Shown here piece by piece: positions 5,470 to 36,910 of a stretch of 38,461 nt of DNA (position 1 is its first letter; the number at the start of each line of letters is the position of its first letter). Both the position numbers and the translations under genes were made by a program. This DNA comes from Bacillota bacterium (GTDB taxonomy: Bacteria > Bacillota > Clostridia > Christensenellales > CAG-138), in NCBI GenBank assembly GCA_023453725.1, contig JAEXTB010000308.1:1-38461 (forward strand). Reading direction: 5' to 3'. Under the pieces are notes generated by a model. It ran no database searches. It worked only from the letters and a program-made list of their open reading frames with translations, and was not told the origin of the DNA.

Positions 5470-5498
5470 AGAATCTCTTTTTCACAACAGGAGGTCAA

Positions 5499-7004: not shown

Positions 7005-7008
7005 GGTT

Positions 7009-7030: not shown

Positions 7031-7151
7031 ATTATTGAGCAGCAGCCCAAAACGAGATTTTGCAATAGTATTCCTGTAAAAGCATGTGTATTTTGCTTGG
7101 TAAGACTCGATAGGAGTTATTTTAGGTGATGAACAAAAGCGGGGGCACAAT

Positions 7152-7520: not shown

Positions 7521-7791
7521 GTCTTAGATGCAATTATAGTTTGCAGAGAGAGCTATAATACTTTTATTCGTTTTGAAATAGCCGATTAAGACCATCCAAA
7601 GAAGTGCCTTTTCACTAACAGACTATTCTAATTCATACCCTATGGTTTCGTTGCAAAGTGATACGGTGGACCATACATAACTAGCAAATTAGGGTGCTCC
7701 TAATTGCGTTTGCTCAGAATACTCCTTGTGTGTCGAACGATTGTTTGGTATATTGGATAGAGTTGGAAGAGTAAATTTTTTGGAGGCCATT

Positions 7792-11080: not shown

Positions 11081-11878
11081 TTACGCGACTTTCTCCAGTT
11101 TCCCAAGCACCACATAGCGGGCTTCATCGTATTCATACGTGCAGGTGGAAAGCGTAACAATGCGGTCTTCTGCCGTTACTTCCACATCGCATGCAAAATC
11201 GGAGGCCTCACGCGCATTCTCAATCAAAGAGAGGAAATCCGCTTCGGTGGCAAAGCTTGTCTGGTATACCTCGTTTGTCGCGTAGCCGTCCGTGACATAA
11301 CCGGCAAACAGCTCCAGCCGGTATACGGCGGCAGGCGTAAACAGAAGCATATCCGGATGCACGTTATAATAAGTCTGCTCCTTGTAGTTAACCAATGAGG
11401 CAAACATGGAGCCATTCTTCATGTGATGCCCATATAAAATTGTGTTCCGGTCCGAAAAATCCTTTTTATTTCTTGCGTCCACAAACACTGTGCCCATCGA
11501 ATTGCGTTCCTTACTGAACAGGTGGCCTAAATAATAGCTGTTGTTGCCGCCCTGCACCACAGGGTAGTTGATGACCGTACCCTCTGAATATAGCCACGCG
11601 TAAAACTCATCGTTTGCAGCTTGCAGCGCTTCATAATCAAGCTGCAGCATCGGCAGGGGAGTAGGCGCGGGGGTGTTGTCCTGGACATTCGGCTCCGCGG
11701 GCACAGGCAATGGTGTAGAGACTGCGCTGCGGGAAAGTTTCAGATACAGCGCGTCTCCCGCCCGGTATTCAATCAGGGGCAGCGCAAACAGAATACCGCA
11801 TACCACCATGGCAATGGCACACAGAACGATCATCAGGTTTAATAAAATGTTCTTGGGGTTGCGCTTGCTTTGACCCAT
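11081..11878 (-). CDS. srtB: Class B sortase
   Basis: N-terminal TM anchor, NDEFYAWLYSEGTVINYPVVQGGNNSYYLGH, TILYGHHMKNGSMFASL, and the catalytic TLSTC motif (IVTLSTCTYEY). Confidence 0.85.
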   Translation of the reverse strand: MGQSKRNPKNILLNLMIVLCAIAMVVCGILFALPLIEYRAGDALYLKLSRSAVSTPLPVPAEPNVQDNTPAPTPLPMLQLDYEALQAANDEFYAWLYSEGTVINYPVVQGGNNSYYLGHLFSKERNSMGTVFVDARNKKDFSDRNTILYGHHMKNGSMFASLVNYKEQTYYNVHPDMLLFTPAAVYRLELFAGYVTDGYATNEVYQTSFATEADFLSLIENAREASDFACDVEVTAEDRIVTLSTCTYEYDEARYVVLGKLEKVA

Positions 11879-19001: not shown

Positions 19002-19220
19002 CCCGCTATGCACCCCTTACGCTGGAATTGGCTGGCAAACGAGCGCCAGCCGATACATGTATTTCCATCTTTCACAAATCATAAACCACGCTGGTCACAG
19101 ACCAGCCTCCAAACCGTCTTTTTTCAATTTTATTTTTTCCTTATTTAGGTTCCCTGCAGTTAAAATGGCAGGAGAGTTCTCAAAATATTCACATACAGCG
19201 TTGTTTTTCAAAAATCACCA

Positions 19221-22117: not shown

Positions 22118-24574
22118 TTATTCTTCTTCGCCCATCAGACGGAACTCTTCCACCAGTTCCTTGAGCATGTCGGCCTGGCCGGAAAGCTCCTCCGCCGTTG
22201 CGGCACTTTCTTCCGCCGTGGCGGAAGTCTGTTGTACCATATCGCTCATCATATTAAGGCCGCTGTTGACCTGCGCAATGCCGGTGGCCTGCTCGTTGGA
22301 GGCATCCGCAATTTCCTTGACGAGCGTCGCCGTCTGTTCAACGGTTGCGGTAATCTCGAGAAGGGCAGCGGAAGTATCGTCCGCAATCCGGGTGCCCGCG
22401 GCCGCTTTCTTAATAGAATTGTTGATGAGCGCAGTCGTTTCCTTTGCGGCGTTGGCGGATTTTTGCGCAAGATTTCGCACCTCGTCCGCAACCACGGAGA
22501 AGCCGCGCCCATACTGCCCCGCGCGAGCCGCTTCAATTGCTGCGTTCAGGGAAAGTATGCTTGTCTGGAACGCGATATCGTCAATGACCTTGATGATCTT
22601 TCGGATACTGCCCGCAGTCTCATTGATGGCTTCCATAGCGACCTGCATGGCGTGCATGCGCTTGTTGCCGGTCTGCGCGTGCGTCTGTGCGGCCACGCTC
22701 AGTTCGCTTGCGGTCATGGCGCGCGCGGCGTTGCGCTTGGTATGGTCGGCAAGTTCCGATACTGTGGCGTTGAGCTCCTCAATAGAGCTTGACTGCTCTA
22801 CAGAAGCATGGGATAGCGCCTGGCTGCCTGCAGACACCTGCAAAGTGCCCGCCGCCACCTGGTCGGCCGCGGCACCGATTTCCTGCAGCATGTCGTTGAA
22901 AGAGAAGACAATGCCGTTGATGGCCTCCTTCAGTTCCACAAAATCCCCGTGGTATTCCGTGGTGATAGATACCGTCAAGTTTTTGTTGGACAGCTCGGAA
23001 AGCACATACGAGGTTTCTGAAATATAACGCTTGAGCGCGGCGATTGTTTCGTTGAGCGCGTGCTTGATAATGGCGTGGTCGCCCCGGAACTCACCCGTTA
23101 CCTGCGCGTCCAGGTTGCCAAGGGAAAGCTCGCGCAGCACGGCGGTCGCTTCTTCCACGGGGGCGATTACGGCGTCAAGCGTGTCGTTTATGCCTTCCAC
23201 GATCTTTTTAAAGTCGCCCTTGTGCTGTTCAGCGTCGGCGCGCGTTTTGAGTTCGCCCGCAAGCGCGGCCTGTACCAGCACGTCGGTATCGGATATCATG
23301 GCCTGCAGGGAACCGCATACGCTCATAAAAGACTGCATGAGCATGCCGATTTCATCTTTGCGGCTGCCCGCCTCCATTGCAAAGCGGGTGTTGCCTTCCG
23401 CAAGCTGTTCGGCCCCGGCTTTTAGCGCCATAAGCGGCTTCTGCACAATTCTGCGTATGAACAACAGCGTGCCTGCTACGGAAAGCGCAATGAGCACAAC
23501 GGCCACAAGTATGGTATTGCGTATGCCCGCTCCGCGCGCCTCATTAATTTCGTCAATCGATAGCCCGACAAACAGGGCGCCCAGCACGGTACCGTCCTTA
23601 TCCATTAACGGCGAATACTTGACGGCGTAGCTCTTTTCCGCAATCACGGCGCGGCCGGTGTACTCCTGCTTCTGCTTCAATACGATATCCGCAATGTGGG
23701 GATCCATTTGGGTGCCCACAATGCGCACGTTGTTCTTCGTAATGGTCGTCGCCCAGCGCACGTCGTTTTTAAACACGGTAAAATCGGCGCCATGCAAATC
23801 CTTCTGTTTATCCAGCAGCGCGGCGTTGTTGTAATAATAACCCGCAACAATACAGCCAACAATCCCCGTGCGCTCCAGCTTTACGGGGACCGCCGCCAGC
23901 CGGTAGATATTGCCGTTGGGGTCGGCGGTAAGGCTGATATCCTGACGCCCCTCAAACGCTTTTTGCAGATAGGCGGCGGAGGCAAGGTTTTCTCCCTTTC
24001 TATAATAGGAACTTGTGGAATAAAGAATGTTCCCAAGCCTGTCCGTCACAAACACAAAGCCGGAACCGCCCGCCTGGAAGTCGCTCAGGTAGTTTCCGAT
24101 GCCTTCCGCATTTTGCGCTGAGACTTCCTTTATAAAGACGGGGTCAACCGCGCTTTCCGTAGCCGTTTCCAGCCAAGTAAGCACCTGGTCCTCCAGGCTT
24201 TTGCTAAAGCTAGAGAACGCGCGGTCCATTTGCTCGTTCATAATGCGGTCGGAAATCTGGTTTCCGCTGGTTGTAGCCAGAAGTGTGCTTACCGTAACCG
24301 CCACAATCAGAATGGGCACTACAAACAAAAGCAGCTTGCCGCCAATGCTCTCAAACAGGGAGACGGCGGATTCGCGCGCCTGGGCTCGCTTTGTAAAAAC
24401 GAGCCTCCCGATGCGAGAAAAGAAAACACCCGTTTTTTGAAAAAAGGCATTACTTTTCTGACCCTCTGCCGGATGACTTTGGGTTTGCGCTTCTTTCGGG
24501 GCCGGTTGCTTTCGGTTGGCGAGTATCTTTGTGGTTAGCTGGGAGAGCTTTGTAAAGATGTTTTTCTTGTTCAC
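22118..24574 (-). CDS. Methyl-accepting chemotaxis protein (Cache-type sensor, HAMP repeats, MA signalling domain)
   Basis: The highly conserved MCP hairpin reads [44 protein letters not shown]. The protein has two TMs flanking a ~270-aa periplasmic domain. The probable start is GTG 24574 (TAGGGGG 6 nt upstream); the ORF stays open to 24628. Confidence 0.85.
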
Positions 24575-24666
24575 CTGACAACCCCCTACAATGCAATATG
24601 GAAAAATATCAAGAAGAGAAGGCCGCAACCTGCAGCGGAGCGGCGTAATCCTTTCATTATATCGGC

Positions 24667-24695
24667 ATTTTATCCGCGGTTCTTAACATTTGCAA
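24667..24695 (-). promoter_or_regulatory. Putative sigma-A promoter for the MCP gene
   Basis: On the minus strand this reads TTGCAA-N17-TAAAAT (-35 at 24690-24695, -10 at 24667-24672), about 90 nt upstream of the start. Confidence 0.4.
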
Positions 24696-24864
24696 AGCAG
24701 AAAGCTGCAATATTATGGGTCTTTTCAAAAATACAGGAAGAATTATGTCTATCAATCATTGTTCACGGTTTCGTTTTTAAAGCGATATCCTTTCAAACAG
24801 CATAATTGCCTTGCATGGTTTGCCAAAATGCCCCAAAAAAATTTGTGTATGGGTCGTATTCGTA

Positions 24865-24915
24865 TTGCAAACGCTTAGAAAAGGGGATTTTACATAGATT
24901 TGATAATTCTAATAT
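24865..24915 (+). promoter_or_regulatory. Candidate Pho-box promoter of the pst operon
   Basis: Four TTnAnA-like hexamers in roughly 11-bp register: TTGCAA 24865, TAGAAA 24876, TTTACA 24888, TTGATA 24899. A -10-like TAATAT follows at 24910-24915. This resembles the PhoP/PhoB direct-repeat architecture. Confidence 0.3.
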
Positions 24916-24976
24916 TGGGGGATAACAATCGGGATGTATGCTTGCAATGTAAAATGAATTGGAGGAAGTATTCAAC

Positions 24977-25921
24977 ATGGAAGCAATCAGAAAGTTTGCA
25001 ACTCTGGCGGTCAGCGCATTACTCGTGCTTTCCGTATTCGCAGGTTGCGCGCCTGCGGCTGAAGCGCCCGCGGCGACCGAAGCACCCGCAAGCGAAGCGC
25101 CTGCGGTGACCGAAGCTCCCGCATCCACATTTGACAATAAGCAGGATATCATCGTGATCTCCCGCGAAGACGGTTCCGGCACCCGCGGCGCGTTCATTGA
25201 ACTCTTGGGCGTCGAAGTGAAGCAGGATGACGGCACCAAAGTGGATATGACAACCGTTGAAGCGCAGATCACCAACGATACCGCCGTCATGCTCACTACC
25301 GTCGCCGGTAACCCCTATGGCATCGGCTACATCTCGCTTGGCTCCCTCAATGATACAGTAAAGGCGGTCCAGGTAGACGGCGTGGACGCCACCGTTGAAA
25401 ACATCAAGGCCGGTACCTACAAGGTTTCCCGTCCGTTCAATATCGCCACAAAGGGCGAAGTGAGCGCCGCAGCGCAGGATTTCATCAACTTCATCATGAG
25501 CGCAGAAGGACAGGAAGTTGTATTGAAGAGCAAGTACATCAAAATCAATGACGCCGCTCCCGCGTTCGCTCCCACGGAAGCTTCCGGCAAGGTCGTCGTC
25601 GCCGGTTCCTCTTCTGTCACCCCCGTCATGGAAAAGCTTGCGGAAGCTTACAAGGCTGTTAATCCTAACGTCACCATCGAAATCCAGCAGAGCGACTCCT
25701 CCACCGGTATGAAGAGCGCCATCGACGGCACCTGCGACATTGGGATGGCTTCCCGTGCGCTCAAGGACAGCGAACTTTCCGAAGGCCTCACCCCGACTGC
25801 CATCGCCATGGACGGTATTGCGGTCATCGTCAACAACGAGAACACCTTCTCCAGCCTGACCTCCGACCAGATCCGTGCCATATTCACTGGCGAGATCCTC
25901 AGCTGGAGCGAGGTTGCGTAA
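24977..25921 (+). CDS. pstS: Phosphate ABC transporter substrate-binding lipoprotein PstS, with permuted domain order
   Basis: GGAGGA upstream of ATG 24977, lipobox VFAG-C, and an (E/T)APA-rich linker. PstS/PBP_like_2 motifs are present (SREDGSGTRGAF, GIGYISLGS, GTYKVSRPF, GSSSVTP, DIGMASRAL, IAMDGIAVIVN, IFTGEILSWSEV), but the canonical C-terminal half comes first. Confidence 0.85.
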   Translation: MEAIRKFATLAVSALLVLSVFAGCAPAAEAPAATEAPASEAPAVTEAPASTFDNKQDIIVISREDGSGTRGAFIELLGVEVKQDDGTKVDMTTVEAQITNDTAVMLTTVAGNPYGIGYISLGSLNDTVKAVQVDGVDATVENIKAGTYKVSRPFNIATKGEVSAAAQDFINFIMSAEGQEVVLKSKYIKINDAAPAFAPTEASGKVVVAGSSSVTPVMEKLAEAYKAVNPNVTIEIQQSDSSTGMKSAIDGTCDIGMASRALKDSELSEGLTPTAIAMDGIAVIVNNENTFSSLTSDQIRAIFTGEILSWSEVA

Positions 25922-25955
25922 ACGTAACATAAACAATGCCAGTGTATGGCATGGC

Positions 25956-25992
25956 TGCCGCCCGGAAAACGCCCCCGCGTTTTCGGGCGGCA
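25956..25992 (+). other. Strong intercistronic hairpin between pstS and pstC, with no U-tract
   Basis: A 16-bp stem with one bulged G (25956-25972 pairs with 25977-25992) and loop CCCC. It is followed by AGCGCG, not a T-run. Confidence 0.6.
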
Positions 25993-26074
25993 AGCGCGTC
26001 CCATAAGATTGTTCCGTGCAGCATTCTGCACACCCCAAAGAACCGTATCCTAAGGAAAAAGAAATAACGGGGGA

Positions 26075-26932
26075 ATGTTCATGAAAAAATGGAAGGAACC
26101 GGCGATGAAAGGCGTATTCATCGCGGCGGCGGCCACCTCCATCCTCTCCGTAGCGCTTATCTGCATATTCCTGTTCGCAAACGGCCTCCCGGCGATATTT
26201 GAGATCGGCCCGGCCAATTTCCTTCTGGGGCGGACATGGAAGCCGGGAAATGATATTTACGGCATATTCCCTATGATTGTGGGGAGCGTCTATGTCACGG
26301 CCGGGGCCATGCTCATCGGCGTGCCCATCGGGTTGTTAATGGCCATATTCATGGCGCGCTTTTGCCCGCGCTGGCTGTACCGCGTATTAAAACCGGCAAC
26401 GGAGCTTTTGGCGGGGATCCCTTCGGTCGTATACGGCTTCTTTGGCCTGGTGGTCATCGTGCCGTTTGTACGGGAGCAGTTTGGGGGCAGCGGTGCATCC
26501 ATGCTAACTGCCTCAGTGCTCCTTGGCATTATGATATTGCCTACGATAGTGGGCGTGGCGGAGAGCGCAATCCGCGCCGTGCCGGAGAACTACTATGAAG
26601 GCTCGCTCGCGTTAGGCGCGACGCATGAGCGCAGCGTGTTTTCCACCCTGGTTCCCGCTGCGAAGTCCGGCCTGTTCGCCTCTGTTGTGCTGGGTATGGG
26701 CCGCGCCGTTGGCGAGACCATGGCGGTCATCATGGTGGCGGGCAACCAGGCGCGCATGCCTGCGGGCATACTCAAGGGACTGCGTACGCTGACTGCGAAC
26801 ATCGTCATTGAAATGGGCTACTCGGCGGATCTCCACCGCGAGGCGCTGATTGCAACAGCCGTTGTGCTCTTTATCTTCATCCTGGTCATCAACGGGCTGT
26901 TCTCGCTGCTCAAGAGGAGGTCGAACCTATGA
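26075..26932 (+). CDS. pstC: Phosphate ABC transporter permease PstC
   Basis: Polytopic permease with the EAA-type loop (ESAIRAVPENYYEGSLALGAT). It sits after pstS. An alternative start is ATG 26081. Confidence 0.9.
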   Translation: MFMKKWKEPAMKGVFIAAAATSILSVALICIFLFANGLPAIFEIGPANFLLGRTWKPGNDIYGIFPMIVGSVYVTAGAMLIGVPIGLLMAIFMARFCPRWLYRVLKPATELLAGIPSVVYGFFGLVVIVPFVREQFGGSGASMLTASVLLGIMILPTIVGVAESAIRAVPENYYEGSLALGATHERSVFSTLVPAAKSGLFASVVLGMGRAVGETMAVIMVAGNQARMPAGILKGLRTLTANIVIEMGYSADLHREALIATAVVLFIFILVINGLFSLLKRRSNL

Positions 26933-27798
26933 CGGGAACGAATGCTTCTTACTATAAAACTGCCGCGCATCCGGGCAGGGGAAAAGCGATATTCTTACGG
27001 GTATTGGTTTACCTTGCCGCGATCATTACCGTTACGGTTCTGCTGTTCCTGGTCGGGTATATTTTAATCAAGGGCGTACCATATCTTACGCCGGAACTGT
27101 TTGCGTGGGAGTATACATCGGAGAACGTCTCCATGATGCCTGCCATTATCAACACCATATTGATGACGGTGCTTTCGCTCATCATTGCGGCGCCGCTTGG
27201 CGTATTTGCCGCAGTCTACCTGGTGGAGTACGCAAAGCGAGGCAGTAAATTTGTTTCCGTTGTCCGCGTGACGGCGGAAACGCTTTCGGGCATTCCTTCC
27301 ATTGTGTACGGGCTGTTTGGCCTCCTGTTCTTTGTCACCCGCCTCCAGTGGGGCATGTCCCTGCTGGCGGGCGCGTTTACTCTGGCGGTTATGATACTGC
27401 CGCTTATTATGCGTACCACCGAAGAAGCGCTAAAGGGTGTGCCGGACGCATACCGGGAAGGCAGCTTTGGCCTTGGCGCAGGGCGGTTAAGAACGGTATT
27501 TTCCATCGTACTGCCTGCGGCGGTTCCGGGCATACTTGCCGGCGTCATATTGGGCATCGGCCGCATTGTGGGAGAAACCGCGGCGCTCATTTATACGGCA
27601 GGTACTGTCGCCAAAGTGCCGGAAAATCTTCTCTCTTCCACCCGCACACTTTCGGTGCATATGTATTCGCTCGCGCGCGAGGGGCTGCATATCAACCAGA
27701 CATATGCGACTGCGGTGGTGCTGCTTATCGTCGTGGTTGGCATTAACGCGCTTTCTTCCATGGTGGCGCGCAGGCTCATTAAGCGCAACGGCAGCTAA
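26929..27798 (+). CDS. pstA: Phosphate ABC transporter permease PstA
   Basis: ATGA overlap with pstC. EAA loop TEEALKGVPDAYREGSFGLGAG. Confidence 0.9.
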   Translation: MTGTNASYYKTAAHPGRGKAIFLRVLVYLAAIITVTVLLFLVGYILIKGVPYLTPELFAWEYTSENVSMMPAIINTILMTVLSLIIAAPLGVFAAVYLVEYAKRGSKFVSVVRVTAETLSGIPSIVYGLFGLLFFVTRLQWGMSLLAGAFTLAVMILPLIMRTTEEALKGVPDAYREGSFGLGAGRLRTVFSIVLPAAVPGILAGVILGIGRIVGETAALIYTAGTVAKVPENLLSSTRTLSVHMYSLAREGLHINQTYATAVVLLIVVVGINALSSMVARRLIKRNGS

Positions 27799-27853
27799 GT
27801 AAACCCTTATGGGGGCGTCACAGAAAAGGCCAGAACCGGCGAAAGGAAGAACT

Positions 27854-28621
27854 ATGGAAAAGCAGAAAAAGGCCATTAAGTTTGATATAAAGGATTTGGA
27901 TCTGTATTATAGCTCGTTTCAGGCGCTTAAGAAAGTGAACATGTCCGTGGAGGAGCGGGAGATCACCGCGTTCATCGGCCCATCCGGCTGCGGCAAGTCT
28001 ACACTTTTGAAAACGCTCAACCGCATGAACGATCTTGTGGAAGGCTGCAGGATTGTAGGCAAGGTCGCGCTCGACGGAGAAGACATTTACGGGAACATGG
28101 ATGTCAACCTTCTCAGAAAGCGCGTGGGCATGGTGTTTCAAAAGCCCAATCCGTTCCCCATGAGCGTGTACGATAACATCGCATATGGCCCGCGTACGCA
28201 CGGCGTGCGATCGAAAGCGAAGCTTGACGATATTGTGGAACGCTCGCTCACCAACGCGGCGATCTGGGATGAACTCAAGGACCGGCTCAAAAAGAGCGCC
28301 CTTGGGCTTTCCGGCGGGCAGCAGCAGCGCCTGTGCATTGCACGCGCGCTTGCTGTGGAGCCCGAGGTGTTGCTGATGGATGAGCCCACCAGTGCGCTGG
28401 ACCCCATTTCCACCTCAAAAATTGAGGATCTTGCCGTGGAATTGAAGTCAAAATATACTATAATCATCGTAACGCACAACATGCAGCAGGCTGCGCGCAT
28501 TTCAGACAAGACGGCATTCTTTTTATTGGGTGAGGTCATAGAGTACGGGGAGACGGAGCAGCTGTTTTCCATGCCAAAGGATAAACGAACAGAGGACTAC
28601 ATCACAGGGAGGTTTGGCTGA
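27854..28621 (+). CDS. pstB: Phosphate ABC transporter ATP-binding protein PstB
   Basis: AAAGGAAG upstream of ATG 27854. Walker [10 protein letters not shown], signature LSGGQQQR, Walker [12 protein letters not shown]. Confidence 0.9.
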
Positions 28622-29277
28622 TGCGAAATAAATTCGACGAACAACTGGATTTGCTGAACAAAGAACTCATTGAAATGGGCGGGCTCATTGAGCAGGCCAT
28701 CCAGAACGCCTGCGCCGCGTTAAGAACCCATGACGCGCAGCTTGCCAAAGAAGCCATTAAGTTTGACCATGAGATCGATGAAAAGGAACGCCGTATTGAA
28801 GGCCTGTGCCTGAGGCTTTTACTGCAGCAGCAGCCGGTGGCAAGGGACCTGCGGCTCATTTCCTCTGCCCTTAAAATGATTACGGATATGGAGCGCATCG
28901 GCGACCAGGCGGCGGATATTTCGGAAATTGTGCTGGTGATGGGCAAGGACTATGACAATGTCCAGCCGGAAGAGATCCCGCTGATGGCAGATGCGACAAT
29001 CGCTATGGTAACAAACAGCATTGATGCGTTTGTGCGGCGGGATGAGGCGCTTGCGCAGCAGGTGATTGACGCGGACGACGAAGTGGACGAACGTTTCCTG
29101 CAGGTACGGGCCAAGCTGATTGAACGCTTTACGGCGGACCCGCACACCGCGGAGTATGCGCTGGATTTGTTCATGATTACTAAATATTTGGAGCGCATTG
29201 GCGACCATGCGGTCAACATTGCGGAATGGGTGCTGTTTTCCATTACCGGCATCCATCAGTCATCTGAAATGGAATAA
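28621..29277 (+). CDS. phoU: Phosphate signalling complex protein PhoU
   Basis: 1-nt overlap with the pstB stop. Two PhoU repeats are present (DMERIGDQAADI and YLERIGDHAVNI). Confidence 0.9.
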   Translation: MRNKFDEQLDLLNKELIEMGGLIEQAIQNACAALRTHDAQLAKEAIKFDHEIDEKERRIEGLCLRLLLQQQPVARDLRLISSALKMITDMERIGDQAADISEIVLVMGKDYDNVQPEEIPLMADATIAMVTNSIDAFVRRDEALAQQVIDADDEVDERFLQVRAKLIERFTADPHTAEYALDLFMITKYLERIGDHAVNIAEWVLFSITGIHQSSEME

Positions 29278-29308
29278 AATCGGTACGTAAGCTTAAAAGG
29301 GGAACGGC

Positions 29309-29977
29309 ATGATTTATTATGTAGAGGATGAAACCAATATCCGGGAACTTGTGCTCTACACGCTTGCGCAGACCGGCTTCGAAGCATGCGGCTTTGAAAA
29401 CGCGGAGCAGTTCTGGAGGGGCATTGACGGTGCACATCCCGAGCTTGTCTTGCTTGACGTCATGCTGCCCGGGGAGGATGGCATTTCTATTCTGAAGCGG
29501 CTGCGTGCAGCAAACGCTACAAAAGGCATCCCCGTTATTCTTTTGACCGCCCGCGGTGCGGAATACGATAAGGTGACGGGGTTGGACGGCGGTGCTGACG
29601 ATTATATTACAAAGCCGTTTGGCATGATGGAGCTGATTTCCCGCATCAAGGCGGTGCTCCGGCGCTCTTCTCCCAAGGAACTCACGGATATTCTCGCCAT
29701 TGACGAGCTTGTCATGAACACAGAAAAGCATACCGTCACATGCGTTGGCGCAAACGTCGTGCTTTCGTTTAAGGAGTTTTCGCTGCTGCGGTTTCTGATG
29801 GAAAACCGCGGGCGCGTGTTCACGCGGGACCGGCTGTTGACCGCTGTCTGGGGCTATGATTATGCGGGCGGCACGCGCACCGTGGATGTACACATCCAGA
29901 CGCTGCGGCAGAAGCTGGGGGATTGTGCGTACCTAGTAGAGACTGTCCGTGGAGTCGGCTACCGCGCAAAGGAGTGA
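29309..29977 (+). CDS. OmpR/PhoB-family response regulator (Pho regulon type)
   Basis: Receiver domain (YYVEDE, LVLLDVMLPGEDG, ADDYITKPF) plus a winged-helix output domain (VDVHIQTLRQKLG ... VRGVGYR). Confidence 0.85.
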   Translation: MIYYVEDETNIRELVLYTLAQTGFEACGFENAEQFWRGIDGAHPELVLLDVMLPGEDGISILKRLRAANATKGIPVILLTARGAEYDKVTGLDGGADDYITKPFGMMELISRIKAVLRRSSPKELTDILAIDELVMNTEKHTVTCVGANVVLSFKEFSLLRFLMENRGRVFTRDRLLTAVWGYDYAGGTRTVDVHIQTLRQKLGDCAYLVETVRGVGYRAKE

Positions 29978-29984
29978 AAGCAAT

Positions 29985-31673
29985 ATGCAAAAGACCGTCA
30001 ACCGCTACATGGTGCTGCTTTCGCTCGCCTGCGTGCTGCTTTTGGCACTTTTGACGCTGGGCGTATTCTATGGCGTGCTTACCGGACAATTGCGCTGGGA
30101 GCAGAGGAGCGAAGCGGAGTATGTGGCGGCAGGCATGAAACTGTTGGGCGATGAAGCATACCTCCATCAGGTTCGTCAGGTGGATGAAACGCGCCTGACC
30201 CTGATTGCCGCCGATGGCACCGTGCTGTACGACACTAATGCAAACGCGGCTCAAATGGAAAACCACGGCGACAGGCCGGAGGTCATTGCGGCGCTGGCGA
30301 ACGGGGTTGGGGAAAGCACCCGGCCTTCGGAAACCATTGGGCGGGAAACGCTCTATTACGCCATAAAGCTTCCGGATGGCAGTGTGCTGCGCCTTGCGGA
30401 TACACAGGCAAGCGTTTGGGGCATCCTGTGGCGGATGCTGCCCGGGGTGATCGGCACGCTTGTTTTGACGCTGCTTATTTGCGTGCTTCTCGCAAAACGC
30501 ATGACGCGGCATGTCATTTCCCCGCTCAATGCGCTGAACCTGGACGATCCGCTCAATAACGACGTGTATGATGAGCTTTCTCCGCTTTTGTCAAGACTAG
30601 AGGCCCAAAAGCGCCAGATTGCTTCGCAGATGCGGGAACTGACCGCAAGGAGCGATGAGTTTTCCGCCATCGCCCACAACATGCGCGAAGGGCTGCTGGT
30701 ATTAAACGCCCACGGTATGATCCTTACCATCAACCGCAGCGCGCAGCGGCTGTTCCGTGCGGACAGCAAGACCTGCACGGGTAAGCATGTGCTTACCGTA
30801 GACCGCAGCCTGAAACTGCAGACTGCGGTGGAGCAGGCCGAAAAAGGCATACCTGCCGAGCAGGTCATACAGCTCAACGGCCGCAGCTACCAGCTCATTG
30901 CAAGCCCGGTGCGCGAGCGCGCGGCGGTGACAGGCGTTGTGGTGCTAATACTCGATATCACCGAGCGGGAGGAGCAGGAGCGCATGCGGCGGGAGTTCTC
31001 CGCAAACGTTTCGCATGAATTGAAAACGCCGCTCACTTCCATTTCCGGCTATGCGGAAATTATGAAAACCGGGCTGGTAAAGCCAGAAAACATGCAGGAC
31101 TTCGCGCGGCGCATATTTGAGGAAAGCACCCGGCTCATTGCCCTTGTGGAGGATACCATACGGCTTTCACGGCTCGATGAAGGGGCAGGAAATATGCCGT
31201 TTGCGCGCGTGGAACTTCTTGCGCTTGCAAACAGCGTCAAAGAGCGGCTGCTTCCTGTGGCGCAGACAAAGGATGTGATATTGCGTGTAGAGGGCGAACA
31301 TGCGGAGGTAGATGGCGTGAAGCAGGTGCTTGAGGAAATCCTCTATAACCTGTGCGATAACGGTATACGCTACAACAGGCAGGGTGGAAGCGTCACGCTT
31401 GCGGTATTGCCGCAGGCCGACGGACGCGTCAATGTCGTGGTGTCCGATACCGGCATCGGCATCCCGCCGGAGCACCAGGCCCGCGTGTTTGAACGGTTTT
31501 ACCGCGTGGACCAGAGCCATTCCAAGGAGACCGGGGGTACCGGGCTTGGCCTTGCAATCGTCAAGCGCGGCGCGCTGATGCATGGCGCAAAACTCTCTCT
31601 GGAGAGCACGGTCAATAAGGGGACGGTTATCACCGTCAAATTTCCCGCGCCTACCGTACGGGAACAGCAGTAG
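29985..31673 (+). CDS. Sensor histidine kinase, PhoR/PnpS-like
   Basis: Two N-terminal TMs, a PAS-like segment, H-box FSANVSHELKTPLTSI, N-box LCDNGIRYN, and G-boxes DTGIGIP and GGTGLGLAIVK. ATG 29985 follows AAAGGAG. Confidence 0.85.
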   Translation: MQKTVNRYMVLLSLACVLLLALLTLGVFYGVLTGQLRWEQRSEAEYVAAGMKLLGDEAYLHQVRQVDETRLTLIAADGTVLYDTNANAAQMENHGDRPEVIAALANGVGESTRPSETIGRETLYYAIKLPDGSVLRLADTQASVWGILWRMLPGVIGTLVLTLLICVLLAKRMTRHVISPLNALNLDDPLNNDVYDELSPLLSRLEAQKRQIASQMRELTARSDEFSAIAHNMREGLLVLNAHGMILTINRSAQRLFRADSKTCTGKHVLTVDRSLKLQTAVEQAEKGIPAEQVIQLNGRSYQLIASPVRERAAVTGVVVLILDITEREEQERMRREFSANVSHELKTPLTSISGYAEIMKTGLVKPENMQDFARRIFEESTRLIALVEDTIRLSRLDEGAGNMPFARVELLALANSVKERLLPVAQTKDVILRVEGEHAEVDGVKQVLEEILYNLCDNGIRYNRQGGSVTLAVLPQADGRVNVVVSDTGIGIPPEHQARVFERFYRVDQSHSKETGGTGLGLAIVKRGALMHGAKLSLESTVNKGTVITVKFPAPTVREQQ

Positions 31674-31729: not shown

Positions 31730-31734
31730 ATATA

Positions 31735-31880
31735 TGATGCTTCGGGGCGGGGTGTAATTCCCCACCGGCGGTGATGCGGCAGGGTTCAAAGCCTGCTTAG
31801 CTAAGCCCGCGACCCCTGTTTACAGGGTTGAGCCAATGAGATTTTGGCGCCGACGGTATAGTCCGGATGGAAGAAGCGCG
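31735..31880 (+). promoter_or_regulatory. FMN riboswitch (RFN element) aptamer
   Basis: Conserved RFN blocks read directly: CTTCGGGGCGGGGTGTAATTCCCCACCGGCGGT, AGCCCGCGACCC, CGACGGTATAGTCCGGATGGAAGAAG. P1 forms by GCTTC/GAAGC pairing. Confidence 0.9.
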
Positions 31881-31911
31881 ACGAGTTCTTTTATCGCCGC
31901 ACTTGTTTTTC

Positions 31912-32022: not shown

Positions 32023-32604
32023 ATGAAACGGGAAAACACAAACAGGCTGGTTCACTTGGGGATGCTGGCGGGGCTTTCGCTGCTGCTGGTCTACATCATT
32101 CATTTCCCCATATTCCCCGGCGCGACGTTCCTCGAGTACGACATGGCGGATGTCCCCATACTCATCGGCACATTCCTCTACGGCCCGCTTTGGGGCATTG
32201 TGCTTACCGCGGTGGTCAGCGTTTTGCAATGGCTGCTCATTTCCCCGGCAAGTGGTTGGATTGGCGCGCTGATGCACTTTTGCGCCACCGGTACGTTTGT
32301 ACTTGTAGCGGGTCTTATCTACAGCCGCTGGCGTTCCCGCAAGGGTGCGGTCACGGGCCTCTTTTTCGGGGCACTGGGCATGATTTTGATGATGATCCCA
32401 TTGAACCTCCTATTCACCGTGCACTTCATGGGCGTGCCGCGTGAGGTGGTGGTGGATATGCTCGCCCCCATCATCATCCCCTTCAATGCCATCAAAACCG
32501 TGGCCAACGGCACGTTGACGTTCCTCCTATACAAGGCTGTTGCGCGCGTACTGCGGATTGAACGCGTGGATAATCCCACCTACGCGGTACAGAAAGCAAA
32601 GTAA
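32023..32604 (+). CDS. ribU: ECF transporter S component, riboflavin-type (RibU)
   Basis: ATG 32023 (MKRENTNRLVHLGMLAGLSLLL). A ~190-aa protein with about six TMs, directly downstream of an FMN riboswitch. The upstream part of ORF 31867.. covers the riboswitch and is not coding. Confidence 0.8.
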   Translation: MKRENTNRLVHLGMLAGLSLLLVYIIHFPIFPGATFLEYDMADVPILIGTFLYGPLWGIVLTAVVSVLQWLLISPASGWIGALMHFCATGTFVLVAGLIYSRWRSRKGAVTGLFFGALGMILMMIPLNLLFTVHFMGVPREVVVDMLAPIIIPFNAIKTVANGTLTFLLYKAVARVLRIERVDNPTYAVQKAK

Positions 32605-32624
32605 ACCATAAGCATAGATGACTG

Positions 32625-32652
32625 AGCCGGAGCAAACGCTCCGGTTCTTTTT
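32625..32652 (+). terminator. Intrinsic terminator after ribU
   Basis: Stem CCGGAGC / GCTCCGG, loop AAAC, then TTCTTTTT. Confidence 0.65.
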
Positions 32653-32678
32653 GTATTTTTGCATATTAAAAAGATGAC

Positions 32679-32707
32679 TTGCGAACAAATGAACGCAAGG
32701 GTATACT
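32679..32707 (+). promoter_or_regulatory. Putative sigma-A promoter of the membrane-protein paralog array
   Basis: TTGCGA (32679-32684), N17, TATACT (32702-32707). The spacer contains the inverted repeat TTGCG-N10-CGCAA. Confidence 0.5.
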
Positions 32708-32750
32708 GGCAATAGACCCATATATATGCATTTCATAAAGGAGATTCAGC

Positions 32751-33263
32751 ATGCGGCGAAAAGAGTGTATTGCTGTATTGAAAGAAAGCCAAATCCCGAC
32801 AAGGTGGATGCGGGCGTATATCAGCATCTATCTCATTGCATTGCTTGTACAACTGGCGTCGCTTATGCTCAGTACCGGCGGGTTGCTGCTGTTTGCGAAA
32901 GATCTGTTGGTAGATCCGCTGCTGACAATGACCTTATCAAGCGGTGCGCTAACGCTGCTGATCTGCACGGCGATTGCCTACCATAGTATGATCCATCTTC
33001 GTCCAAGTGCCTTTGTGTGGTGTGTCGTGCATCTCATACTTTCCGCTGTTTACTGGACAGGTAGCGCTACACTAAGTTTAGTGCCCGCATATGATTCTGC
33101 GGGGATTGGATATGCGCCATACGCCGCAATCTTTTTCGTGATTTATATGGGCGGATGGGTTGCGCCAAATTACCTGTACTTTAACAAACGGAGGGAGTTA
33201 TTCCGCGTGTATACGCCGCGGGAGATTGCTTTTGCGATGAGCCAGTGGCACTCGCTTTCCTAG
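32751..33263 (+). CDS. Paralog A of a 4-TM membrane-protein family (unrecognised family); divergent and lacks the basic tail
   Basis: AAAGGAG upstream. Shares W-M-R-x-Y-[IL] (TRWMRAYISIYL) and the post-TM4 motif PNYLYFNKRRELFRVYTPREIA with copies B-E. Confidence 0.7.
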   Translation: MRRKECIAVLKESQIPTRWMRAYISIYLIALLVQLASLMLSTGGLLLFAKDLLVDPLLTMTLSSGALTLLICTAIAYHSMIHLRPSAFVWCVVHLILSAVYWTGSATLSLVPAYDSAGIGYAPYAAIFFVIYMGGWVAPNYLYFNKRRELFRVYTPREIAFAMSQWHSLS

Positions 33264-33322
33264 GTTCTTAAAGTTGGCAGAACAATCAGACCAGTACAGG
33301 ACAGAACAGGAGCAGAAACGAT

Positions 33323-33988
33323 ATGACCAATGCCGGTATCAAAGCGGTGCTCAAAAAAACGATGCTCGAGAATGAGGAAATCTCGACCGCATGGATGGGC
33401 TTTTATCTGAATGTATATTTGTATCTGGCGCTTGTGACGAGCGTGCTGACCCTGCCCAATACACTATTAAACATATCCAATATCCCCATCTTTGTTGGAG
33501 AAGGGAATATTTGGGGGGTGGTATCGTTCTTTGTGAGCGCGATTGCGGCTGTTGCAGCAATCATGACGTTTATTGAACTTCGCGACATTACACTGGCAGG
33601 ATACAAGTGGAATATTGTATTGCTGGTGAGCATTTCTGTTGAGTTTGCCCTTTCTATGCTCTCCGTATGGCTTAGAGGCGAGCCTGATGCACGAATGGAT
33701 ATTGGCTTTCTGATTGGAGGACAGGTAGTAGTTGCCCTGACTTGGCTTGTCCCCAACCTAATTTACTTCAAGAAGCGCAAGCACCTGTTCCGCCCCTACA
33801 CCACGGCGGAGGTGGCGGCTGCTCTTAAAGGCGAACCGCCGACCCCCGCGCTGCCTGTTCGTAAACCTTGCCATTATAAGCCCACCAAAGTGAAGGTTGA
33901 TATGAGGAAGCTTTATTCGTCTCAAGCGGACGGCAAGGAGACACGGCTTATGCGGATCATGGAACAGCATAACAAAGTGAAAGTGTAG
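33323..33988 (+). CDS. Paralog B, full-length with the basic Cys tail
   Basis: MTNAGIKAVLK N-terminus, WMGFYLNVYLY, GYKWN, PNLIYFKKRKHLFRPYTTAEVAAALKGEPPTPALPVRKPCHYKPTKVKVDMRK. Confidence 0.75.
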   Translation: MTNAGIKAVLKKTMLENEEISTAWMGFYLNVYLYLALVTSVLTLPNTLLNISNIPIFVGEGNIWGVVSFFVSAIAAVAAIMTFIELRDITLAGYKWNIVLLVSISVEFALSMLSVWLRGEPDARMDIGFLIGGQVVVALTWLVPNLIYFKKRKHLFRPYTTAEVAAALKGEPPTPALPVRKPCHYKPTKVKVDMRKLYSSQADGKETRLMRIMEQHNKVKV

Positions 33989-33996
33989 GAGAGGCT

Positions 33997-34636
33997 ATGG
34001 CCAATACTGTAATCGGATTGCCAATGCAACCCAAAGAACTACGCACAAAATGGATGCGCTTTTATCTCAACATTTATTTGCTCCTGAAGCTGATTTCTGT
34101 GGTGCTTGCCATACCAAGCATAGTTTCCGTACTCCCTCTCATTGCCGAATGGGTAGCAGAAGGTTACAATTTGTATGCTATTGCATTGATTGCGCCGATC
34201 GTCGTAATCCTGTCTACGATTATGACATTTATCAAAACACGGAAGCTGACGCCGACCGGATACAAGTGGAATACCGTTATGATCTGGAGCAATTTTGTTG
34301 GGTTTGCCGCATGGTCGTTAGGAGGTGAGCTACAGGCAAGCCGGGGCCTATACACCTCCGGGGTTTGTGTTTATTGCGATCATACTCTATTTGTTTGGGT
34401 GGACGGTGCCCAACCTTGTCTATTTTCATAACCGCAGGCGATTGTTCTATATCGGCACAGAGGAAGAGAAAGCGGCTCCCGCCGCTCCAAATGCGCCGGA
34501 CACTCTCACGCCGCCTATCCGCAAACCTTGCCATTATAAGCCTGGCAAAGCGAAGGTAGATACGCGGAAGCTTTATTCGCCGAAGAATAGGGCGACAAAG
34601 TTCGCGCGTATTATAAAGCATCAGCAGCAAAGATAG
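33997..34636 (+). pseudogene. Paralog C, split by a +1 frame change (frames 33997..34431 and 34325..34636)
   Basis: Frame 1 carries WMRFYLNIYLL and GYKWN. Frame 2 carries PNLVYFHNRRRLF and PPIRKPCHYKPGKAKVDTRK. The frames overlap at 34325-34431, where GGGG runs occur at 34343-34346 and 34360-34363. Confidence 0.7.
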
Positions 34637-34666
34637 GCATGACAATACAGAGCAGGAGTATGAGCC

Positions 34667-35278
34667 ATGACCAATGCCGGTATCAAAGCGGTACTCAAGA
34701 ATAAGAATCCTTCCACAAGATGGCTGCGCTTCTATCTCAACGTGTATCTATACATTGTAATCGTGTTCGCGGCGATTGCGACTCCAAGCATTGTGATTGG
34801 CTTGCTCAGCAGTGCCAACTGGATTGCTGAGGGAAATATCTTGGAGCTCACAACGTTTTTGGTTCGCACGCTTACGGCTGCTGCTTCAATTGTTACATTT
34901 CTTGAGATGCGCGATTTAACAATGCTCGGTTATAAATGGAACGTTGTCATGCTTTGTGGTGGATTTGTTTGGACAGTTCTAATATATGTTTCCGAGTGGT
35001 TAAATACGGATGCCGAATACAGGACTCAAATGAGCGGGGTGGCTCTATTCTTGGCGCTGTTGCTGTTCCTGTGGCTCATTCCCAATTTGGTTTATTTCAA
35101 AAATAGAAAGCATCTCTTCCGCCCCTACACCGCTGCGGAGGTTGCGGCCGCCATCAAGGGCGAACCGCCCGCCCCCGCGCTGCCCATCCGCAAGCCCTGC
35201 CGCTATAAGCCTACCAAGGCGAAAGTGGATACGCGGAAGTTCTTGCCTCAGGCCAGGAAAGAGACGAGATATTTTTAG
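34667..35278 (+). CDS. Paralog D, full-length with the basic Cys tail
   Basis: MTNAGIKAVLK, with the first 26 nt identical to copy B. WLRFYLNVYLY, GYKWN, PNLVYFKNRKHLFRPYTAAEVAAAIKGEPPAPALPIRKPCRYKPTKAKVDTRK. Confidence 0.75.
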   Translation: MTNAGIKAVLKNKNPSTRWLRFYLNVYLYIVIVFAAIATPSIVIGLLSSANWIAEGNILELTTFLVRTLTAAASIVTFLEMRDLTMLGYKWNVVMLCGGFVWTVLIYVSEWLNTDAEYRTQMSGVALFLALLLFLWLIPNLVYFKNRKHLFRPYTAAEVAAAIKGEPPAPALPIRKPCRYKPTKAKVDTRKFLPQARKETRYF

Positions 35279-35369
35279 ATCATGAAAGATCATAAGCAAA
35301 TGCGCGTTCGATAATGTGGAACAGGAGCAGAAGATACGACCAAGGCCGGCAGTAAGACGGAGCGAAAAG

Positions 35370-35867
35370 ATGGAGCTAAAAGACAAAGATAAGGAACGTT
35401 CCATTGCATGGATGCGGATTTATATTGGCGCTTTTCTATGGATTGCGGTCTCGTTTGCAGTGTGCCGTATTTCCGCCATGGCGGAAGAGGTTCCACACAT
35501 CGCCTTATGGATTCGGAACGGCCTTTATCCATTACTCATCAGGCTTCTTGTGCAGACGGTTGCATCAGTAACCACGGTTATCACGTTCATACAGATGCGC
35601 AGGTTGAAACCATCCGGCTACTGGTGGAATGTCGTCATGCTGTGGAGCATTTTCGTCACTGTCGCAACGGACGTGCTTACTTTGGGGATTGTTGGGCTGC
35701 CAAGCATCAGGATACCGGCGGAATCGACAGTTACAGTGATGATAGCGCCATTGTTATGGATCATTCCTAACCTGATTTACTTCAAAAAGCGCAAGCATTT
35801 GTTCCGCGGCTATACCGCGGCGGAGGTCAAGGCTGCTATTTATGGGGAGCCGCTGCCCCCGCGCTGA
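35370..35867 (+). CDS. Paralog E, with a remodelled N-terminus and no tail
   Basis: WMRIYIG, GYWWN and PNLIYFKKRKHLFRGYTAAEVKAAIYGEPLPPR-stop. The start is ATG 35370 or GTG 35316. The ancestral start position now reads ACG (35336-35338). Confidence 0.6.
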   Translation: MELKDKDKERSIAWMRIYIGAFLWIAVSFAVCRISAMAEEVPHIALWIRNGLYPLLIRLLVQTVASVTTVITFIQMRRLKPSGYWWNVVMLWSIFVTVATDVLTLGIVGLPSIRIPAESTVTVMIAPLLWIIPNLIYFKKRKHLFRGYTAAEVKAAIYGEPLPPR

Positions 35868-35963
35868 TCATCTGCAAAACCCTTGGTATGAGCATGTAAA
35901 GGCGAACGGAATAATGCATTTTATAGCGCTGACCAGAACGGAAAGGGAACGATAAAACCAAAC

Positions 35964-35992
35964 AAAAGAGCGCCGAAGAACGGCGCTCTTTT
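35964..35992. terminator. Bidirectional intrinsic terminator
   Basis: 12-bp perfect stem AAAAGAGCGCCG / CGGCGCTCTTTT with loop AAGAA. It sits between the paralog array (+) and the convergent gene that ends at 35999 (-). Confidence 0.8.
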
Positions 35993-35998
35993 GTATTG

Positions 35999-36910
35999 CT
36001 ATTTCCCGTCTATCCGCGGCTTGCCTACGCCATCGTCCACATTCACAGTTTCGGGCGGGGTGAGCAGGACATCCGGTTTCGCCAGGATATGCCGGAACTG
36101 CTTGATGGAAGAGGCAAAGTAAAGCCCGTCGCAGATGCGCTCGTCTATGTTGATTTTCAGCCCGATGAAACGCTTGACTTCGCGCGCACCGGTTTCGGAA
36201 ACCGTGTGTATGCGGGTCTTGTTGCCCATGGCCACAAACATGCTGCAGGTGCCAAACTCGTACAGGTGATGATAGATAGGGCCAATGCCCAAGGAGCCCA
36301 TGTTGGTCAGAAACATGCTGGCGTGCCAGGGGCTTACTTCAAAAAGAGCGCGGGGGAGGCGGCCTATGTTATCCAGCGTGCGGATAATTCCAATGACAAA
36401 CCGGAGGATAAACGAAGGGATGTATCCCATGAATTTGGAGATTTTGTCCGCATCGTTGACAGCGCCTTCGATCCTGTTGGAATTAACGGCTTCGGAAATG
36501 CGGCGTGCTACGTCATAGATGGTATCGGTAGGCTCAAACTCAACCTTTACGACGGTTTCCTCGCCCTTTTCCGTCATGGTACGCTTGATGACGAGGGAAA
36601 GCGTGATGCTGTTGCGCGCGTAGACCTTGTTCCAGACAATAAAGCGGTTGAGATAAGGGCGCAGTGCGACGATGCGTACAAGCCCCGCAATGAGTATGTG
36701 CATATAGGAAAGCTCAGGCATGGTTTCCCGGTGCTTGCGTACAAATTGTTCCAACGGCTCAAGCGGCAGGCTTTCTTCAAACATATTCTGCGAGTCGAGG
36801 CGAGAGCGCAGGATAAAGGGAATCACATTAAACAGCGCGTCCACATTGCGGATGCGCCAGCCGTCGTAACGGTCAAATATGCCACGCTTGAAAGTATGCT
36901 GCATATGCAT
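35999..36910 (-). CDS. 2-oxoacid dehydrogenase acyltransferase catalytic-domain (CAT-like fold) family protein
   Basis: 303 aa. A DERICDG segment sits where the DHRxxDG active-site motif would be, and the overall layout resembles PF00198-type stand-alone proteins. The assignment is from memory only. Confidence 0.5.
   Translation of the reverse strand: MHMQHTFKRGIFDRYDGWRIRNVDALFNVIPFILRSRLDSQNMFEESLPLEPLEQFVRKHRETMPELSYMHILIAGLVRIVALRPYLNRFIVWNKVYARNSITLSLVIKRTMTEKGEETVVKVEFEPTDTIYDVARRISEAVNSNRIEGAVNDADKISKFMGYIPSFILRFVIGIIRTLDNIGRLPRALFEVSPWHASMFLTNMGSLGIGPIYHHLYEFGTCSMFVAMGNKTRIHTVSETGAREVKRFIGLKINIDERICDGLYFASSIKQFRHILAKPDVLLTPPETVNVDDGVGKPRIDGK

Follow-up and report, generated by a model that had tools for sequence, protein, structure and literature searches.

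Bacterial genomes commonly contain clusters of paralogous genes for small membrane proteins. The described systems closest in layout to the locus examined here are the tandem immunity genes of bacteriocin loci (CPBP/Abi, Rce1-like, PF02517) and the orphan immunity arrays of polymorphic toxins, both of which consist of small polytopic tandem paralogues in varying copy number. The superinfection-exclusion proteins of temperate phages, encoded near an integrase or repressor, offer a second comparison, and the SHOCT and zinc-ribbon membrane proteins a third; in these, a membrane part is likewise followed by a short cytoplasmic module, for which inner-leaflet placing or assembly has been proposed (PMC11237479; for the description of SHOCT, PMC3581485). 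Here we characterize an array of five paralogous genes, encoding proteins predicted to have four transmembrane (TM) helices, on the + strand of contig JAEXTB010000308.1 (Bacillota bacterium assembly GCA_023453725.1; Clostridia, Christensenellales, CAG-138); the whole 38,461-nucleotide (nt) stretch that was analyzed is referred to below as the window.

We regard the bacteriocin immunity arrays and the phage exclusion proteins as functional analogies only. The array has no sequence or fold relation to the immunity arrays of bacteriocins or polymorphic toxins, there is no toxin, bacteriocin, or exporter nearby, and its conserved face is predicted to be cytoplasmic. Two distant relatives do occupy positions like those of phage exclusion proteins, but the array itself is chromosomal, lies between housekeeping flanks, is syntenic across species, and has no PHROGs, phage, or plasmid match. 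The basic tail of its proteins matches neither SHOCT nor zinc ribbons by any profile. Its kin are instead found in a wider, mostly metagenomic 4-TM superfamily (P0053, P0058, P0067, P0068, and others) with the same homologous N-terminal domain, motifs, and cytoplasmic extension. Whereas those relatives usually bear zinc ribbons (DZR, Zn_Ribbon_1) or SHOCT, the window clade has a basic Cys-containing tail or none. It differs further in that its proteins have a conserved N-terminal [IC]-x-A-V-L-K helix and in that its A and B genes form a fixed pair to which further paralogues are added. Our leading interpretation, which we hold tentatively and regard as possible rather than probable, is that the array encodes a heteromer of A and B subunits that serves as a membrane anchor or scaffold and whose cytoplasmic tail acts as an adaptor.

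Organization of the array

Five family members follow one another on the + strand at 32751-35867, of which A, B, D, and E are intact and C is frameshifted. The family profile matches each intact copy at E values of 1e-60 to 1e-75 and the two halves of C at 7e-25 and 8e-10, so that the paralogy of the array is far beyond chance. A first-pass annotation made from the sequence had described five consecutive paralogues; the five members stand, with the amendment that C is broken by a 5-nt deletion. The features of the array and its borders are as follows.

32624-32647 (+): terminator-like hairpin with a 10-bp stem (7 G-C pairs) followed by a T run; closes the ribU unit and forms the upstream boundary of the array
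32679-32707 (+): sigma-70-like promoter match TTGCGA-N17-TATACT, 9 of 12 consensus positions
32751-33263 (+): copy A, A-type subunit of 170 amino acids (aa); N-terminus MRRKECIAVLKES, C-terminus QWHSLS, no basic tail
33323-33988 (+): copy B, B-type subunit of 221 aa; N-terminus MTNAGIKAVLK, four predicted TM helices, basic Cys tail (RKPCHYKPTKVKVD...)
33997-34636 (+): copy C, disrupted by a frameshift; 5' part in frame to ~34319, 3' part in the +1 frame from 34322
34667-35278 (+): copy D, B-like subunit of 203 aa; N-terminus as in B, basic Cys tail (RKPCRYKPTKAKVD...)
35370-35867 (+): copy E, trimmed B-derived subunit of 165 aa from ATG 35370; lacks the N-terminal helix and the tail
35855-35877 (+): tail-coding relic that spans and passes the stop codon of E, 87% identical to D at 35171-35193
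35962-35994 (either strand): bidirectional terminator-like hairpin with a 14-bp stem (8 G-C pairs) and T runs on both strands

Identity of the copies to B ranges from 22 to 52%, the upper value being that of D, which is 100% identical to database protein P0001. This divergence, together with the existence of A, B, C, and E orthologues in other species (related Feifaniaceae-like metagenome-assembled genomes [MAGs]), speaks against recent copying, as the gene-sized tandem amplification proposed initially would suggest. AGGAG-like ribosome-binding sites precede A, B, C, and D (in A, AGGAG lies 8 nt upstream), and GGAG lies 10 nt before ATG 35370 of E. The second hairpin, which forms the downstream boundary, lies between E and a convergent acyltransferase-like gene, and the array is flanked by two terminator-like hairpins, in line with the annotation. 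An own promoter is less clear: the annotated TTGCGA-N17-TATACT sequence is present, but promoter-type matches in the region are barely enriched over shuffled sequence (10 found versus 6.4 expected), making the match weak when taken alone.

The lower G+C content first noticed in the array was confirmed (0.49 versus 0.53 for the window), and the G+C content at third codon positions (GC3) is likewise lower, at 0.52 to 0.60 compared to 0.64 to 0.73 in flanking genes. Two other parts of the window are also low in G+C: 7001-8000 (0.40), just upstream of a nitroreductase gene, and 24001-25000 (0.45), which holds the start of a - strand chemoreceptor gene and the intergenic region before the pst cluster.

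The possibility that the array is a collapsed or misassembled repeat, raised at the outset, was not borne out. Positions 32600-36000 of the window are 100% identical and gap-free in L004 and L005, and L006 is identical over the part it covers; because these are three different ERZ public metagenome assemblies, the array is not misassembled.

A constant A+B core with variable accessory copies

The 37 close sequences that we compared sort into orthologous types:

A type: start MRRKECIAVLKES, end QWHSL(S)
B/D type: start MTNAGIKAVLK, end basic Cys tail
E type: trimmed start, end GEPLPP[RYI]
C type (P0040 in L023): end basic Cys tail

The 12 A-type orthologues are invariant in the N-terminus and the C-terminal motif. 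About 10 related MAG loci have the same flanks, with pstSCAB-phoU, a response regulator and kinase, and an FMN (flavin mononucleotide) riboswitch-ribU unit upstream of the array, and the convergent acyltransferase-like gene and then a PHP gene downstream; the flanking proteins are 82 to 95% identical to those of the window. The copies found at the compared loci are as follows.

Window locus: A-B-C-D-E, with C broken
L023, L024: A-B-C
L008, L010: A-B-E
L001 (= L013 + L014): A-B plus a 388-aa gene of two fused domains
L007, L009: A-B, then an unrelated 470-aa gene on the opposite strand
L015 (a more distant Clostridia MAG): A-B pair alone, in a different neighborhood

Judged from this gene content, A+B is the constant core unit in every configuration compared, and the extra copies, which lie between unchanging flanks (ribU and the acyltransferase-like gene), have been added, fused, shortened, or lost from species to species. 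The survey of relatives proposed in the first-pass annotation recovered varying array content between constant flanks, with A+B kept throughout. In more distant bacteria, A-type and B-type domains also occur as single-chain fusions, with the A-type half first, in P0038 and P0039, which lie in unrelated neighborhoods, and likewise in P0042, where the second domain is incomplete. Constant adjacency and natural fusion are the reasons that we propose an A/B heteromer. An AlphaFold (AF2) model of the P0038 fusion has eight long helices (predicted local distance difference test [pLDDT] 79.6, predicted TM-score [pTM] 0.64); its second half rests on two or three sequences, B-type sequences not having been placed there by MAFFT.

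The accessory copies are more changeable. Copy C is split into open reading frames (ORFs) at 33997-34431 (144 aa) and, in a different frame, 34325-34636, owing to a 5-nt deletion at ~34319/34320 relative to the intact C-type orthologue (L023:1838-2467; P0040, 209 aa). The lesion is also present in L004 and L005, and it is recent, as the downstream frame stays open and still encodes PNLVYF...RKPCHYKPGKAKVD. A programmed frameshift was considered and rejected, since there is no slippery site and no nearby stop and an intact orthologue exists. By its sequence, copy C is dead in this genome. For copy E, ATG 35370 is the probable start rather than the in-frame GTG 35316 upstream, and from that ATG the protein is identical to database protein P0019. 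Relics of what E lost remain at both of its ends. At 35336-35375, the DNA that encodes MTNAGIKAVL at the start of B and D survives in degenerate form and out of frame. The tail-coding relic at the 3' end indicates that E lost its tail through truncation. The E-type orthologues P0020-P0025 and those of L008 and L010 all end at GEPLPP[RYI], and this shared end point across species argues that the trimmed form is old and retained.

We also considered that the cluster is an assembly artefact or is decaying and functionless, which would fit with the frameshift in C, the loss of both ends in E, and a contig break within the array in one MAG (L013/L014). Beyond the identical sequence in three assemblies, no related genome lacks A and B, which show a ratio of nonsynonymous to synonymous substitution rates (dN/dS) of 0.27 and invariant motifs, and E-type proteins are conserved in several species. 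This explanation is very improbable for the locus overall, and sequence comparison excludes it for A, B, D, and E.

The ~470-aa gene found in place of copies C-E (L009:10845-12260 and L007:10689-12095, both on the - strand) encodes three G-R-T-[FY]-G-x-x-G-[FY] repeats and has an N-terminal, sub-threshold PG_binding_1 match. Its presence there marks the array site as an insertion hot spot. As a candidate toxin partner it yielded no Pfam family and no phage match, with the sub-threshold PG_binding_1 match as the only profile similarity.

A narrow clade of a wider 4-TM superfamily

The family had initially gone unrecognized, and our searches agree: scans of all copies against Pfam, NCBIfam, PADLOC, and PHROGs gave no match above threshold, and PDB sequence and Foldseek comparisons likewise returned nothing. 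The weak Pfam matches, each in one copy and below gathering thresholds (DUF7937, 17.7/31 bits; DUF819, 20.6/27 bits; DUF2463, 13.9/22.5 bits), are absent among the 99 superfamily relatives scanned with Pfam. PADLOC-DB defense models matched A, B, D, E, and P0040 with 0 families at E ≤ 0.1, and PHROGs gave one chance-level match, for copy A only (E = 0.032, 46-position model). Searched against PDB sequences, the family profile and the isolated tail each gave 0 hits at E ≤ 10. The best Foldseek E values were 0.42 (B model against PDB), 0.16 (A-B fusion model against PDB), and 0.51 (B model against BFVD), none of them significant, with TM-scores of 0.16 to 0.36 across the B and fusion models. No match to PF02517 (CPBP/Abi, Rce1-like) was found in the array, which also has no conserved His or Glu within the membrane. 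The PF02517 family is often linked to bacteriocin immunity, and one member, a 413-aa CPBP/Rce1-like membrane protein, is encoded elsewhere in the window at 5268-6509 (+), 26 kb from the array and unrelated to it.

A word-indexed search of 5.8 billion proteins recovered 36 clusters, the sole names among them being 'hypothetical protein [Feifaniaceae bacterium].' An exhaustive profile search (hmmsearch with the A3 profile against 1.84 billion cluster representatives) yielded 5 matches at E ≤ 1e-30, 43 at E ≤ 1e-10, and 290 at E ≤ 1e-3, and these counts place the window clade as a narrow branch of a wider 4-TM superfamily. The matches cover profile positions ~12-152, i.e., the full four-helix domain, and share the motifs W-x-x-[FY]-Y at the start of TM1, G-Y-x-x-N before TM3, and P-N-x-x-Y-F-x-[KR]-R-x-x-L-F after TM4, whose columns are invariant or nearly so in alignments A3 and A8. 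Distant members carry the 4-TM domain at the N-terminus, preceded by a median of 1 residue and followed by a median of 93 aa. C-terminal modules identified in 99 distant members at E ≤ 1e-3 were Zn_Ribbon_1 (34), DZR (28), and SHOCT (13), with DZR rising to 45 of the 99 at E ≤ 1. At the latter cutoff, zinc-ribbon and SHOCT were the only recurring Pfam families in these relatives, and no model covered the 4-TM domain; neither zinc-ribbon nor SHOCT profiles matched any copy in the window. None of the 10 distant relatives whose cluster names were looked up carries one. As far as sequence comparison can tell, the array genes are a genuine family without a described match, and a lineage-specific paralogue cluster.

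Predicted architecture and the basic tail

The motif plan reported in the first-pass annotation was recovered: W-[ML]-R-x-Y, G-Y-x-W-N, and P-N-[LY]-x-Y-F-x-[KN]-R-[KR]-x-L-F-R-x-Y-T are shared by A, B, D, and E and occur across the two halves of C. The AF2 model of B (37-sequence alignment, pLDDT 70.6) places TM helices at residues 22-51, 63-87, 91-118, and 127-151, with further, short helices at the N-terminus (3-17) and at 161-168; the tail is modeled at low confidence. Loop 1 of B has zero K or R, and residues 149-221 (73 residues, after TM4) have 18, from which, under the positive-inside rule, both termini are predicted to be cytoplasmic. The presence of zinc ribbons at either end of the domain in distant relatives is consistent with this topology. 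The model and the charge distribution also fit the four TM helices and cytoplasmic basic tail that had been described at first pass.

The tail is less uniform than first described. The AAEVAAA[LI]KGEPP stretch attributed to B, C, and D is absent from C, which retains only PPIRKPCHYKPGKAKVDTRK, and the Pro-Cys thought to be invariant has the variants KSC, KLC, KHC, AIC, and AVC, with P0038 lacking the Cys entirely (RPVHH). The Cys is present in 15 of the 16 tails compared, and C-H or H-H pairs are frequent (PCHY, ICHF, VCHH, VHHG); the family as a whole does not depend on the Cys. Every A-type protein of the close clade starts with MRRKEC, and Cys6 is absent in the A-type proteins of more distant pairs (L015, P0038, and P0039). 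A search of the 5.8 billion proteins with a tail-only profile returned a single match, a fragment of the same clade, and no use of the tail as a mobile module was found. Because distant relatives bear zinc-ribbon or SHOCT modules at the same position, a role of the tail as a docking site is plausible by analogy.

These residues raise the alternative of a thiol or metal switch, in which the tail Cys (often followed by His) and the A-type Cys6 would either pair in a disulfide between subunits or bind a metal jointly, in a split version of the complete zinc ribbons seen in distant relatives. The near-constant tail Cys, the C-H or H-H pairs in many tails, and the MRRKEC start in all close-clade A-type proteins are in line with it, as are the zinc ribbons at the tail position in 34 to 45 of the 99 relatives. 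We nevertheless consider it quite improbable: the pair is C-R, not C-H, in D and several B orthologues, the Cys-free P0038 and the A-type proteins of L015, P0038, and P0039 without Cys6 do not fit, one or two ligands per chain are weak for a metal site, and the tail profile matches nothing outside the clade.

A small-solute or ion channel or transporter, formed by A+B as an eight-helix bundle or a higher oligomer, is a further alternative. Its cytoplasmic gate would be a ring of N30, N97, N145, W24, Y28, W96, and Y148 (B numbering). Conserved polar and aromatic residues are indeed grouped at the cytoplasmic ends of TM1, TM3, and TM4, the fused A-B form is modeled with eight helices, and the top weak Foldseek rows for the fusion are the transporters PfHT1 and MATE (E = 0.16 to 0.6). 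These rows are non-significant, with TM-scores of 0.16 to 0.25, the helix cores are the least conserved parts of the proteins, there are no conserved charged residues inside the membrane, and the zinc-ribbon and SHOCT extensions of relatives would be unusual for transporters. We therefore judge this function improbable, if somewhat less so than the thiol or metal switch.

Evolutionary rates and recombination

Orthologues of A and B are 54 to 71% identical to the window's proteins. Pairwise NG86 estimates of nonsynonymous (dN) and synonymous (dS) substitution rates, in which dS is near saturation (~1), were as follows.

A: median dN 0.31, dN/dS 0.27
B: median dN 0.26, dN/dS 0.27
Five flanking genes: median dN 0.06-0.13, dN/dS 0.05-0.13

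The dN of A and B is 4 to 5 times that of the flanking genes, with dN/dS < 1 throughout, and the overall dN/dS of 0.27 indicates that A and B are functional genes under purifying selection. Constraint differs by region: dN/dS is 0.14 to 0.18 in cytoplasmic segments compared to 0.41 to 0.43 in helix cores and outer loops, where it reaches 0.6 to 0.8 in a few less saturated pairs. Invariant columns are found in the N-terminal helix and at the start of TM1, in the loop joining TM2 and TM3, at the end of TM4 together with the basic juxtamembrane segment, and over much of the tail.

A diverges in step with ribU (rho = 0.66) and with B (rho = 0.54) but not with the downstream genes (rho = -0.02 and -0.23). 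Distances of ribU and the acyltransferase-like gene are uncorrelated across L001, L007-L012, and L023 (rho = -0.06), and in the L010-L023 pair the acyltransferase-like gene has a dN of 0.02 and A has a dN of 0.37. That A follows its upstream and not its downstream flank suggests a recombination junction at the array, with the caveats that the pairs are non-independent and that metagenomic contigs may be chimeric at repeats.

This pattern bears most directly on the possibility that the array is an immunity or exclusion module, in which the membrane proteins would block a membrane-acting bacteriocin or the entry of a phage genome, with outer loops and paralogue repertoire setting specificity. 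Copy content differs among species whose flanking proteins are 82 to 95% identical, A and B diverge faster than their flanks, the variable TM and outer parts reach the dN/dS of 0.6 to 0.8 noted above, the apparent recombination junction and the low GC3 of the array point the same way, and two distant relatives are cargo beside integrases. The first of these relatives, P0058 (SHOCT-bearing, 204 aa; gene 6001-6615 in L025-L029), lies in an integrase/AAA_25/helix-turn-helix (HTH) element found in 47 collection blocks; the second, a 486-aa two-domain protein (L031:5707-7167), lies among XRE repressors, a Fic-like protein (HPFPDGNGRVGR), and a large serine recombinase on an IMG/VR contig. Yet the array has no PADLOC or PHROGs match, and no toxin, bacteriocin, ATP-binding cassette (ABC) exporter, or prophage lies beside it in the ~10 loci. 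There was no match in 50,697 phage records (INPHARED, tblastn) or 72,556 plasmid records, and only 4 distinct distant relatives, all near contig ends, were recovered among 2.9 million viral contigs. Moreover, dN/dS is < 1 everywhere, the fast change is explicable by the substitution tolerance of hydrophobic helices alone, and the most conserved surface is the cytoplasmic one rather than the exposed one. On balance, we regard an immunity or exclusion module as unlikely, though the likeliest of the alternatives, and the immunity, exclusion, or receptor functions suggested at first pass as speculative.

A more elaborate version would combine several of these elements, with the A/B heteromer and changeable B-derived subunits acting at the level of the envelope to protect, by exclusion or immunity, against the entry of phages or against membrane-acting bacteriocins, within a hitherto unrecognized, widespread 4-TM membrane-anchor superfamily and at a recombination junction; its fast outer face would provide specificity, and its conserved cytoplasmic face and Cys tail would couple it to a conserved cellular partner. 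We consider this composite a little less likely than the immunity module in its simpler form.

A putative membrane anchor or scaffold

The array is an operon of paralogous genes for 4-TM subunits, of which C, D, and E are derived from B. Under the anchor or scaffold interpretation that we tentatively favor, this operon would be vertically inherited, and its products would be small proteins of the inner membrane whose two termini both lie in the cytoplasm. The obligatory unit would be one A-type and one B-type protein, most likely assembled as an eight-helix heteromer, with C, D, and E as accessory subunits. Because the cytoplasmic face is the conserved one, it would form the functional surface, comprising the N-terminal amphipathic helix, the TM2-TM3 loop (GYxWN), the juxtamembrane segment P-N-x-x-Y-F-K-K-R-K-x-L-F-R-x-Y, and, in B, C, and D, the basic, partly disordered tail. 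Through its N-terminal helices, juxtamembrane segments, and tails, the complex would tether a cytoplasmic partner or a sub-membrane assembly to the membrane, and the paralogue repertoire would tune what gets recruited. We infer the scaffold role and the adaptor role of the tail from these features. The reading agrees with the proposal that SHOCT-like domains place proteins at the inner leaflet and assemble membrane-associated complexes (PMC11237479); SHOCT function itself is unproven, and the experiments of the authors who described it did not support oligomerization (PMC3581485).

Several observations weigh against this interpretation. The tail of B is modeled at a pLDDT of ~50, and the persistence of tail-less A-type and E-type proteins indicates that the tail is not the sole functional element. 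The case for heteromer formation is drawn solely from gene fusion and co-occurrence. The conserved residues where membrane and cytoplasm meet would fit a gate or a site of lipid binding just as well. Finally, no conserved partner gene emerged from the neighborhoods of P0038, P0039, P0043, P0058, and P0067, which have no gene in common.

Neighboring genes

Upstream of the array, ~24959-31673 (+) holds a phosphate-uptake cluster (a PstS-like binding protein, two permeases, PstB, and PhoU), followed by a response regulator and a PAS/HisKA kinase; the cluster and the two-component proteins are syntenic in all related MAGs and 81 to 95% identical to those of the window. The gene at 32023-32604 (+) encodes a PF12822 energy-coupling factor (ECF) transporter S component and is directly preceded by an FMN riboswitch (31734-31882, +; Rfam RF00050, 103.8 bits); its product is therefore very likely the riboflavin S component RibU. 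The start of ribU is probably ATG 32023 (193 aa, as in relatives), the longer ORF call from 31867 overlapping the riboswitch. A functional link of the array to these upstream genes was rejected on two grounds: ribU is controlled by an FMN riboswitch and closed by a terminator of its own, and in L015 the A-B pair lies among unrelated genes. The statement in the first-pass annotation that no toxin, transporter ATPase, or regulator adjoins the array holds in that the pst-phoU-two-component and ribU units are separate and closed by a strong terminator.

Downstream, the acyltransferase-like gene at 35999-36910 (-) encodes a 303-aa protein whose only match, below threshold, is with the C-terminal portion of the 2-oxoacid dehydrogenase acyltransferase catalytic domain (E = 0.0013); it has no lipoyl domain and is kept beside the array in all close relatives. 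Elsewhere in the window, a sortase gene at 11081-11878 (-) and a gene for a 1204-aa VWA-domain protein at 15399-19013 (-), a few kb apart, may form a sortase-dependent surface adhesin or pilus locus.

Implications

The clade described here is rare (~36 protein clusters among 5.8 billion proteins) and comes from uncultured Clostridia, so its practical impact is limited. If our interpretation is correct, however, the array and its relatives would define a membrane domain that has no Pfam or NCBIfam model and no structural relative. The A+B pair would offer a clear, testable case of a two-subunit unit that is backed by natural fusions. Further, the interchangeable zinc ribbons, SHOCT modules, and basic Cys tail carried by one and the same domain would provide a handle on the role that short cytoplasmic modules play at the membrane.

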